A DNA stretch of 64,000 nucleotides from Escherichia coli (GTDB taxonomy: Bacteria > Pseudomonadota > Gammaproteobacteria > Enterobacterales > Enterobacteriaceae), in assembly GCF_002854065.1 (NCBI RefSeq), contig NZ_CP024147.1; one strand, given 5' to 3'. Made by a program: the position numbers. Numbering within the stretch: position 1 is the stretch's first letter; the number at the start of each line of letters is the position of its first letter. Shown in pieces: positions 24,001 to 27,000 of this stretch.

Positions 24001-27000
24001 CGTAAAGGCGATATTGGCGCGTTCGATTCGCCGAAATTTATCGGCCTGCCGGTGGGTGAAGTATTGAAAGTGGCGAAAGATCATCTCGATGTTGCCGTTA
24101 CCGATCCACTGGCAAATGGCGATGGCCTGAACGTGTTGATTAAACGTGAAGTCGTCGGTTTTCGTGCCAATACGGTCGAGAAAACCGGAGAAAATCAGTA
24201 CCGCGTCTGGCCCAATGAAATGCCAGCAGATTTGCACAAAATTCGCCCGCATCACCCACTAAACCGTAATCTTGATCATAACTGGCAGCAGGCACTGACA
24301 AAAACCTCCAGCGAACGTCGGGTGGCGGTAGACATTGAACTGGGCGGTTGGCAGGAACAATTGATTCTGACCCTCACCAGTGAAGAGGGGGTCAGCATCA
24401 CGCATACGCTGGATGGGCAGTTCGACGAAGCCAATAACGCCGAAAAAGCAATGAACAATCTGAAGGATGGTCTGGCAAAACTGGGGCAAACCATCTATTA
24501 CGCCCGCGATGTGCAAATTAATTTGCCGGGGGCACTGTTTGTACCAAACAGTCTGTTAAACCAGTTCCGCCGTGAAGCTGCTGACATGCTGGATGCTGCG
24601 CGTCTTGCCAGTTACCAGCGCGGCAGCCGTAAACCGGTTGCTGATCCTGCGCCGGTTTATCCGCAAACGCATCTGAGTTTCCTCGCGAACGTTTACAACC
24701 AGAAAGCGCGTGAATTTTATCATCGCTATGGTGTGCAGCTGATTGACGCGGCGTATGAGGCACATGAAGAGAAGGGCGAAGTCCCGGTGATGATCACCAA
24801 GCATTGTCTGCGCTTTGCCTTTAATTTGTGCCCGAAACAGGCGAAAGGCCATATCAAAAGCTGGAAGGCTACGCCAATGCAACTGGTTAACGGCGATGAA
24901 GTATTAACGCTAAAGTTTGATTGCCGCCCATGCGAGATGCACGTTATTGGCAAAATCAAAAATCACATACTGAAAATGCCGTTACCGGGAAGCGTAGTGG
25001 CATCCGTAAGTCCGGATGAGCTGCTGAAAACATTGCCGAAGCGAAAAGGGTAAAACGCCAGTTTTCTGGTTACTCACAACTTATTGAATCTGCATGATAT
25101 TGCCTGCCGGGTAAGGCGTTACGCCGCATCCGGCATCAAACGACTCAACGTTGTCCCGCTTCTGGTTTGCGCGATTTTTGCCAGTAAAAATGCTCGCGCA
25201 AACCTTCCGCCGACTCTTCCGCCACAGCACGCAATTCATCGCTGTCCGCTTCATGACGCAGCTGATGATCCACATTCTTTACCCACACAAATTCATGTCC
25301 TTTGTGCCCTGCCATGAGTTGTCCTGAGAACAGCGCACACGTTAATAAGACAACCGATAACGCCTTCGTAAACATCCTGCCACCTTTTTCTTACCTTTTG
25401 CCGCTATGATGCCGATCGTTTCTTGAGGTTATTATTCAGTTTTGCAAATTAGCGCAAAGAAATTCTGGAATCTTCCTTCCTGATTTTGCATTGCATTCTG
25501 CCGTTGCGGCGATTTAGTGCTATTTTCGAGCAAATTACACACGGAGGTAAACACTAATGTTTACTTTGTTGATATACTCAGCGGCAGGGAGGCGATGTGA
25601 AACAAAGCGAGTTCAGACGTTGGCTCGAATCTCAGGGCGTCGATGTAGCGAATGGCAGCAACCATTTGAAACTCAGGTTTCATGGGATGCGCAGTGTCAT
25701 GCCGCGTCACCCCTGCGATGAGATTAAAGAACCATTGCGTAAAGCAATCCTGAAACAACTCGGTTTGAGTTAATCGCCAATTAAAAAGGTTAATGACATG
25801 CGAGAGACAGTCGAAATTATGCGTTATCCCGTCACTCTTACACCCGCGCCGGAAGGCGGTTATATGGTTTCTTTTGTGGATATCCCTGAAGCGTTGACGC
25901 AGGGCGAAACTGTCGCTGAAGCGATGGAAGCGGCAAAAGATGCTTTACTGACCGCATTTGATTTTTATTTTGAAGATAACGAGCTTATCCCGTTACCTTC
26001 GCCATTAAATAGTCATGATCACTTTATTGAAGTACCTTTGAGCGTCGCCTCTAAGGTATTGCTGTTAAATGCTTTTTTACAGTCAGAAATCACTCAGCAA
26101 GAGTTAGCCAGGCGAATTGGCAAACCTAAACAGGAGATTACTCGTCTATTTAACTTGCATCATGCGACAAAAATCGACGCCGTCCAGCTCGCGGCAAAGG
26201 CGCTTGGCAAAGAGTTATCGCTGGTGCTGGTTTAATTACAGTTAACGAAAAGTTGTCATTTTTAACAACTGATATAGACTGCCGAATCATCTGCACATAA
26301 TTACGATTCGATAATGAAAAAATACCAGCAGCTTGCAGAACAATTACGCGAGCAGATTGCGTCGGGTATCTGGCAACCCGGCGATCGTTTGCCTTCGTTG
26401 CGTGACCAGGTGGCGCTTTCTGGCATGAGCTTTATGACTGTCAGCCATGCCTATCAGTTGCTCGAAAGTCAGGGATATATTATCGCACGACCGCAGTCGG
26501 GTTATTACGTTGCGCCACAGGCAATAAAAATGCCGAAAGTGCCAGTCATTCCAGTCACTCGAGATGAAGCAGTCGATATCAACACTTATATTTTTGATAT
26601 GTTGCAGGCCAGTCGCGATCCGTCGGTCGTTCCGTTTGCCTCGGCCTTTCCCGACCCGCGACTTTTCCCCCTCCAACAACTAAACCGCTCGCTGGCGCAG
26701 GTAAGCAAAACCGCCACAGCGATGAGTGTGATTGAAAACTTACCGCCAGGAAACGCAGAACTGCGTCAGGCTATTGCTCGTCGCTATGCCTTACAGGGCA
26801 TCACCATTTCTCCTGATGAAATTGTCATCACTGCCGGGGCGTTAGAAGCATTAAACCTCAGTTTGCAAGCGGTAACTGAACCGGGCGATTGGGTGATAGT
26901 AGAGAATCCTTGTTTCTATGGCGCGTTGCAGGCGCTGGAACGGCTACGGCTGAAAGCGTTATCGGTAGCGACGGATGTTAAAGAAGGGATCGATCTTCAG

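Follow-up and report, generated by a model that had tools for sequence, protein, structure and literature searches.

Two short open reading frames follow each other on the forward strand of an Escherichia coli chromosome segment of 64,000 nucleotides (contig NZ_CP024147.1; the whole stretch is called the window here). They raise the question of whether they form a toxin-antitoxin operon and, if so, whether that operon differs in any way from the hicAB module of K-12. With high confidence, they make up the type II toxin-antitoxin operon hicAB that E. coli carries on its chromosome, orthologous to K-12 b4532/b1438. The module is already known, and it is ordinary apart from a rare allele of HicA.

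The first frame encodes 58 amino acids from a GTG start and the second 138 amino acids from an ATG (Table 1). They are separated by exactly 45 nt (25774-25818), and the ORF list and the sequence bear out to the nucleotide the original prediction of a 58-aa GTG-initiated frame and, 45 nt beyond it, one of 138 aa. Two adjacent genes on the same strand, with the toxin first and a short spacer between them, represent the inverse gene order of a type II toxin-antitoxin operon of the hicAB type.

The product of the first frame matches the Pfam family HicA_toxin (PF07927) with 29.4 bits against a cut-off of 27, the match covering residues 5-57, and also matches PHROG 353, a family annotated as 'toxin'. 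It is identical at 57 of 58 positions to K-12 HicA and to the crystallised chain 6hpb_A. With 58 residues and one PF07927 domain it fits the size criterion of the HicA family (50-100 aa, single domain, COG1724/PF07927). Members of this family carry a catalytic histidine in strand β2 and a conserved glycine in the β1-β2 loop (PMC6159526, PMC11594946, PMC8138530). Both Gly20 and His23 are present in the protein encoded here, and each is conserved in 116 of 118 homologue representatives. The GTG start overlaps an ATGTGA sequence at 25595-25600 in which an ATG is followed directly by TGA in another frame; this one-codon ORF is probably inconsequential.

The second frame scores 32.8 bits against HicB_lk_antitox (PF15919; cut-off 27). 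The C-terminal HTH-like region that had been noticed in it is an Xre-type helix-turn-helix domain, which Pfam HTH_3 (PF01381) recognises at residues 95-141 when the protein is numbered in a 145-aa form (31.4 bits; cut-off 23). HicB also matches PHROG 497, 'HicB-like', at 2e-35. It is identical at 137 of 138 positions to K-12 HicB, to chain B of 6HPB and 6HPC, and to 6U0I. The original assignment of the two frames to HicA and HicB thus stands on both Pfam scores above the gathering cut-offs (for HicA_toxin, HicB_lk_antitox and HTH_3) and near-identity to the K-12 proteins. The margins for HicA_toxin and HicB_lk_antitox are just 2-6 bits, as is common where a family is so short and divergent. 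A scan with NCBIfam HMMs gave no match for HicA or HicB. This null says little, given that RefSeq annotates the genes as hicA and hicB all the same, and it carries no weight against the identification because the proteins are nearly identical to experimentally characterised ones.

The start of HicB can be read in two ways. Seven codons before the annotated start lies another in-frame ATG, at 25798, which is itself preceded by an AAGG at a distance of 8 nt; translation from it would yield 145 aa, and the mechanical ORF starts there. The 138-aa form is the one annotated by RefSeq in K-12 and in strain CUWW06 and is present in PDB 6HPB and 6HPC, while the 145-aa form is that of 6U0I, a structural-genomics entry. 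The N-terminal sequence MRYP of the shorter form is kept in the homologues of Citrobacter freundii, Serratia fonticola, Salmonella enterica subsp. diarizonae and Klebsiella oxytoca. The upstream ATG is found in Escherichia and Citrobacter only and is absent from the Serratia, Salmonella and Klebsiella homologues. Since the methionine of MRYP is conserved, the 138-aa protein is the conserved form of HicB; the 145-aa protein may arise in Escherichia from an alternative start.

Table 1. Coordinates of hicAB, its control elements and other RNA features of the window
Feature	Position	Strand	Remarks
yncJ-hicA intergenic region, hicAB promoters/operator	25376..25596	+	221 nt; 100% identical to K-12
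candidate hicO, GTAAACA-CTAA-TGTTTAC	25547..25564		perfect 7+7 inverted repeat
candidate P2 -10, extended -10-like TGaTATACT (TGATATACT)	25570..25578	+	read from sequence
hicA Shine-Dalgarno AGGGAGG	25586..25592	+	4 nt before GTG; read from sequence
hicA	25597..25773	+	58 aa, GTG start; Pfam PF07927; RefSeq WP_000813793.1 on identical DNA
hicA codon 31	25687..25689	+	ATG (Met) vs K-12 AGG (Arg); rare natural allele
hicB	25819..26235	+	138 aa; PF15919 and PF01381; RefSeq form
hicB codon 137	26227..26229	+	CTG (Leu) vs K-12 ATG (Met); penultimate residue, conservative
RydC sRNA	9494-9557	-	Rfam gathering-level match
sok antitoxin RNA (hokB/sokB)	10117-10268	-	Rfam gathering-level match
isrA (McaS) sRNA	47314-47442	+	Rfam gathering-level match

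The operon occupies the same place as in K-12. The gene order is sutR-rlhA-yncJ-hicA-hicB-ydcR-ydcS, with yncJ on the opposite strand, in the window as well as in K-12 MG1655 and in CUWW06. The shared synteny, together with the near-identity to crystallised HicA and HicB, bears out the earlier description of a known system, and the placement confirms that the window is a segment of the E. coli chromosome collinear with K-12 around 1.51 Mb. No mobile-element genes lie beside hicAB, the flanks being the housekeeping-type genes yncJ and ydcR. A generic terminator scan listed none after hicB. The alignment to K-12 that had been proposed as a check shows 99.4% identity of the locus DNA, with 6 differences in 938 nt. 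None of these falls in the upstream region, one is in hicA and five are in hicB. Compared with the K-12 operon of PDB entries 6HPB, 6HPC and 6U0I, the chromosomal position, the neighbours, the toxin-first order, the 45-nt spacer and the upstream region base for base are the same. What differs is the rare R31M substitution in HicA, a conservative M137L substitution in HicB and four synonymous changes in hicB.

Of 5426 complete E. coli genomes, 5415 match a 941-nt query (25380-26320) over some or all of its length, and 4217 of them cover at least 80% of it, the genes being named hicA and hicB by RefSeq. CUWW06, an isolate from wastewater in Thailand, is the sole complete E. coli genome to match the whole query with 100% identity, and RefSeq calls the identical stretch hicA and hicB. 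Among the genomes read, CUWW06 is also the only one sharing the C at 26227 that gives M137L, and the window therefore probably comes from a strain closely related to it.

The biochemistry of the system is known from K-12. HicA is described in PMC11594946 and PMC8138530 as a translation-independent mRNA interferase with a dsRBD fold, of which His23 is the one known catalytic residue. K-12 HicA in particular is a translation-independent RNase that arrests growth (Jorgensen et al. 2009, as cited in PMC11594946). K-12 HicB neutralises the toxin by binding to it directly and acts as repressor of the operon that encodes it (PMC8138530, PMC10865869). The antitoxin is described there as fully folded, with helix α1 of a partial RNase H-like domain packing on the β-sheet of HicA and covering His23, while its HTH domains dimerise and bind the inverted-repeat operator hicO. 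By analogy, the 58-aa dsRBD-fold HicA of the window would cleave mRNAs and tmRNA independently of translation and so cause growth arrest. The N-terminal partial RNase H-like domain of HicB would bind HicA and cover the catalytic His23, and its Xre-type HTH dimer would bind hicO and repress the downstream promoter P2. Degradation of HicB by Lon is likewise expected from the published work on K-12.

A two-promoter layout for hicAB is given in PMC6957337, PMC8138530, PMC11594946 and PMC10865869, all citing Turnbull & Gerdes 2017. According to the first three of these accounts, promoter P1 has a CRP-S site, is activated by Sxy and produces a transcript for both proteins. Promoter P2 is repressed by HicB and produces a transcript that yields HicB and no HicA; excess HicA derepresses it (PMC6957337, PMC8138530, PMC11594946). 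Transcription of hicAB rises upon starvation for amino acids or carbon in a Lon-dependent manner, as summarised in PMC11594946. The operator hicO is described, where it is mentioned in PMC10865869 and PMC6957337, just as an inverted repeat at P2 near the start of hicA.

The control region of the window offers a candidate for this operator. Within 25376-25600 no perfect inverted repeat other than the palindrome listed in Table 1 has arms as long as 6 nt or longer; a repeat search with a minimum length of 8 missed its 7-bp arms, and it was recovered by a custom scan. It lies immediately upstream of the extended -10-like sequence TGATATACT. A transcript starting about 7 nt downstream of this sequence would begin at or inside the Shine-Dalgarno sequence of hicA, which fits the published behaviour of P2 as a promoter that gives HicB but no HicA. 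The palindrome is therefore proposed as a candidate hicO bound by HicB dimers and the adjoining element as a candidate -10 of P2, and their arrangement upstream of hicA is consistent with the published description of hicO and P2. In the proposed circuit P1, through its CRP-S site and Sxy, would give a transcript encoding both HicA and HicB, and excess HicA would free HicB from hicO so that the antitoxin is selectively replenished.

A simple promoter scan listed no promoter upstream of hicA, the candidate P2 -10 included. Its only match in the hicAB region, at 25793-25820 in the hicA-hicB spacer, agrees at 9 of 12 positions, a level reached at chance frequency, and was not interpreted. In a simple consensus scan of 25376-25600 for the CRP-S core TGCGA-N6-TCGCA the best matches carry 3-4 mismatches, and across the window the 36 matches to the consensus against 40 expected are at chance level. 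TTTGC-N8-GCAAA at 25441-25458 is an imperfect palindrome resembling CRP-S half-sites, but its spacing is not that of a CRP-S site. With a control region that does not differ from that of K-12, the window has the published elements by identity, including any CRP-S site that functions in K-12. The RNA of the hicA-hicB spacer folds no more stably than shuffled sequence (z = -0.01), and no structured RNA element is accordingly proposed in it.

The one feature that sets the toxin apart is the methionine at position 31, which is arginine in K-12 and in nearly every other E. coli. The exact 61-mer around this codon is found in 15 of 3800 matching complete E. coli genomes. Residue 31 is part of the β2-β3 hairpin and follows His23 at a distance of eight residues. 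Among the 118 non-identical homologue representatives (67-97% identity) it is lysine in 61, arginine in 49, asparagine, histidine or glutamine in 7 and methionine in none, so that a lysine or arginine occupies it in 110 of 118 (93%). The eight carrier genomes that were read all encode the same HicA, WP_000813793.1. At the DNA level they divide into three or more haplotypes, and their hosts, on several continents, include pigs, poultry, humans, a frog and a deer. This spread over haplotypes, hosts and countries indicates that R31M is real and persistent rather than a sequencing error, and that the allele is either old or recurrent.

Given the strong preference for lysine or arginine, full activity of this toxin is not guaranteed. 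The operon might be hicAB with an attenuated toxin, R31M having removed a basic side chain near His23; we regard this as unlikely, if worth considering for a substitution seen in none of the homologue representatives and in so few E. coli genomes. On that reading the change would weaken binding or cleavage of RNA, or alter the binding or affinity of HicB. The homologues with asparagine, histidine or glutamine indicate that a basic residue is not absolutely required at this position, and His23, the sole residue that the literature examined shows to be essential (PMC8138530, PMC11594946), is present. The allele is moreover maintained with an intact reading frame and beside an intact hicB on at least three haplotypes.

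Also in favour of attenuation is the fate of hicA in other lineages, where it has been inactivated independently by two deletions. One, of 445 bp, is found in ST131, Nissle 1917 and related genomes and corresponds to 25552-25996 of the window. Lost with it are one half of the palindrome, the whole of hicA and the part of hicB that encodes the N-terminal half, and what remains is an annotated hicB pseudogene beside ydcR. The other, of 22 bp, is found in 042-like genomes (e.g., Ec-042-T5-MAC) and corresponds to 25714-25735, between two TGCG repeats; it shifts the frame of hicA and leaves hicB intact, producing an antitoxin without a functional toxin. Roughly 1100 of 5426 complete genomes carry the first deletion and roughly 800 the second, both figures being approximate since they derive from an evenly spaced ranking of the matches and from junction 61-mers, whose counts are confounded by joined split matches. 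Taken together, about one in three complete E. coli genomes has lost a functional hicA, and loss of the toxin is evidently tolerated. HicA-M31 could on this evidence be an intermediate on a repeated path of shedding hicA while keeping hicB or a remnant, a scenario to which we give a low probability. The window itself carries the intact form of hicAB, and HicA-M31 is presumably still an active toxin.

Relatives of the operon outside Escherichia and Citrobacter bring in a different kind of question, that of its role. In Serratia fonticola (L014, 1501-2134) and Klebsiella oxytoca (L016, 1501-2131) hicAB encodes a HicA about 81% identical to that of the window. Their HicB, of 135 aa, likewise starts with MRYP and gives the same domain matches, and the operons have the toxin first and a spacer of about 50 nt as here. 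These copies are located between the genes for the small and large terminase subunits of a prophage, in contrast to the non-mobile chromosomal context of the window copy. Their spacer contains a GC-rich hairpin (CCAGCCC...GGGCTGG) whereas that of E. coli does not. Also related are the HicA3B3 system of Yersinia pestis and those found in Burkholderia pseudomallei and in Streptococcus pneumoniae, in which HicB has an RHH-type DNA-binding domain in place of the Xre-type HTH seen here. Common to them and to the operon here are a HicA of dsRBD fold that has the catalytic histidine and, at the N-terminus of HicB, a partial RNase H-like domain placed over the active site. At least in B. pseudomallei, HicB likewise leaves the operator when HicA is in excess (PMC11594946, PMC8138530, PMC6159526).

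The closest relatives examined outside Escherichia and Citrobacter are those between terminase genes, and both HicA and HicB of the window match PHROG 'moron' families. A 2024 survey argues from genetic contexts for a defence role of HicA domains (PMC10865869), and the prophage relatives and moron matches are compatible with such a function. With the same molecular parts, the operon could accordingly protect against phages, through abortive infection or in some related way, with phage infection as the trigger instead of a response to starvation, competence or stress. For the E. coli operon this is improbable: it sits between the housekeeping-type yncJ and ydcR with no adjoining mobile-element genes, the literature examined shows no phage-defence phenotype for K-12 hicAB, and its regulation, as published in PMC11594946 and PMC11951105, is by CRP-Sxy, HicB and, under starvation, Lon. 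The remaining reading, that the two frames are chance open frames or a decayed, functionless remnant, can be set aside with near certainty: a lone 58-aa frame is statistically unremarkable and NCBIfam is silent, but both frames are uninterrupted, their products score above the Pfam gathering cut-offs and are 98-99% identical to crystallised and functionally characterised proteins, these Pfam, K-12 and PDB chain matches refuting it outright, hicA keeps a conserved Shine-Dalgarno sequence downstream of a control region equal to that of K-12, and the truly decayed versions of hicAB in other strains look different.

As a chromosomal hicAB operon, this is a type II module of the textbook kind, located where it would be expected, and finding it there matters little. 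The added value is modest and lies in the population context, namely the rare R31M allele at a conserved basic position, the loss of hicA in other lineages and the relatives among prophage morons. These could inform the study of how chromosomal toxin-antitoxin modules decay, although they would hold no surprise for a specialist. A second toxin-antitoxin locus of the window, hokB, had also been listed in the original prediction; the hokB/sokB locus is confirmed indirectly by an Rfam match to the sok antitoxin RNA. Rfam further recognises the small RNAs RydC and isrA (McaS) on either side of hicAB (Table 1).
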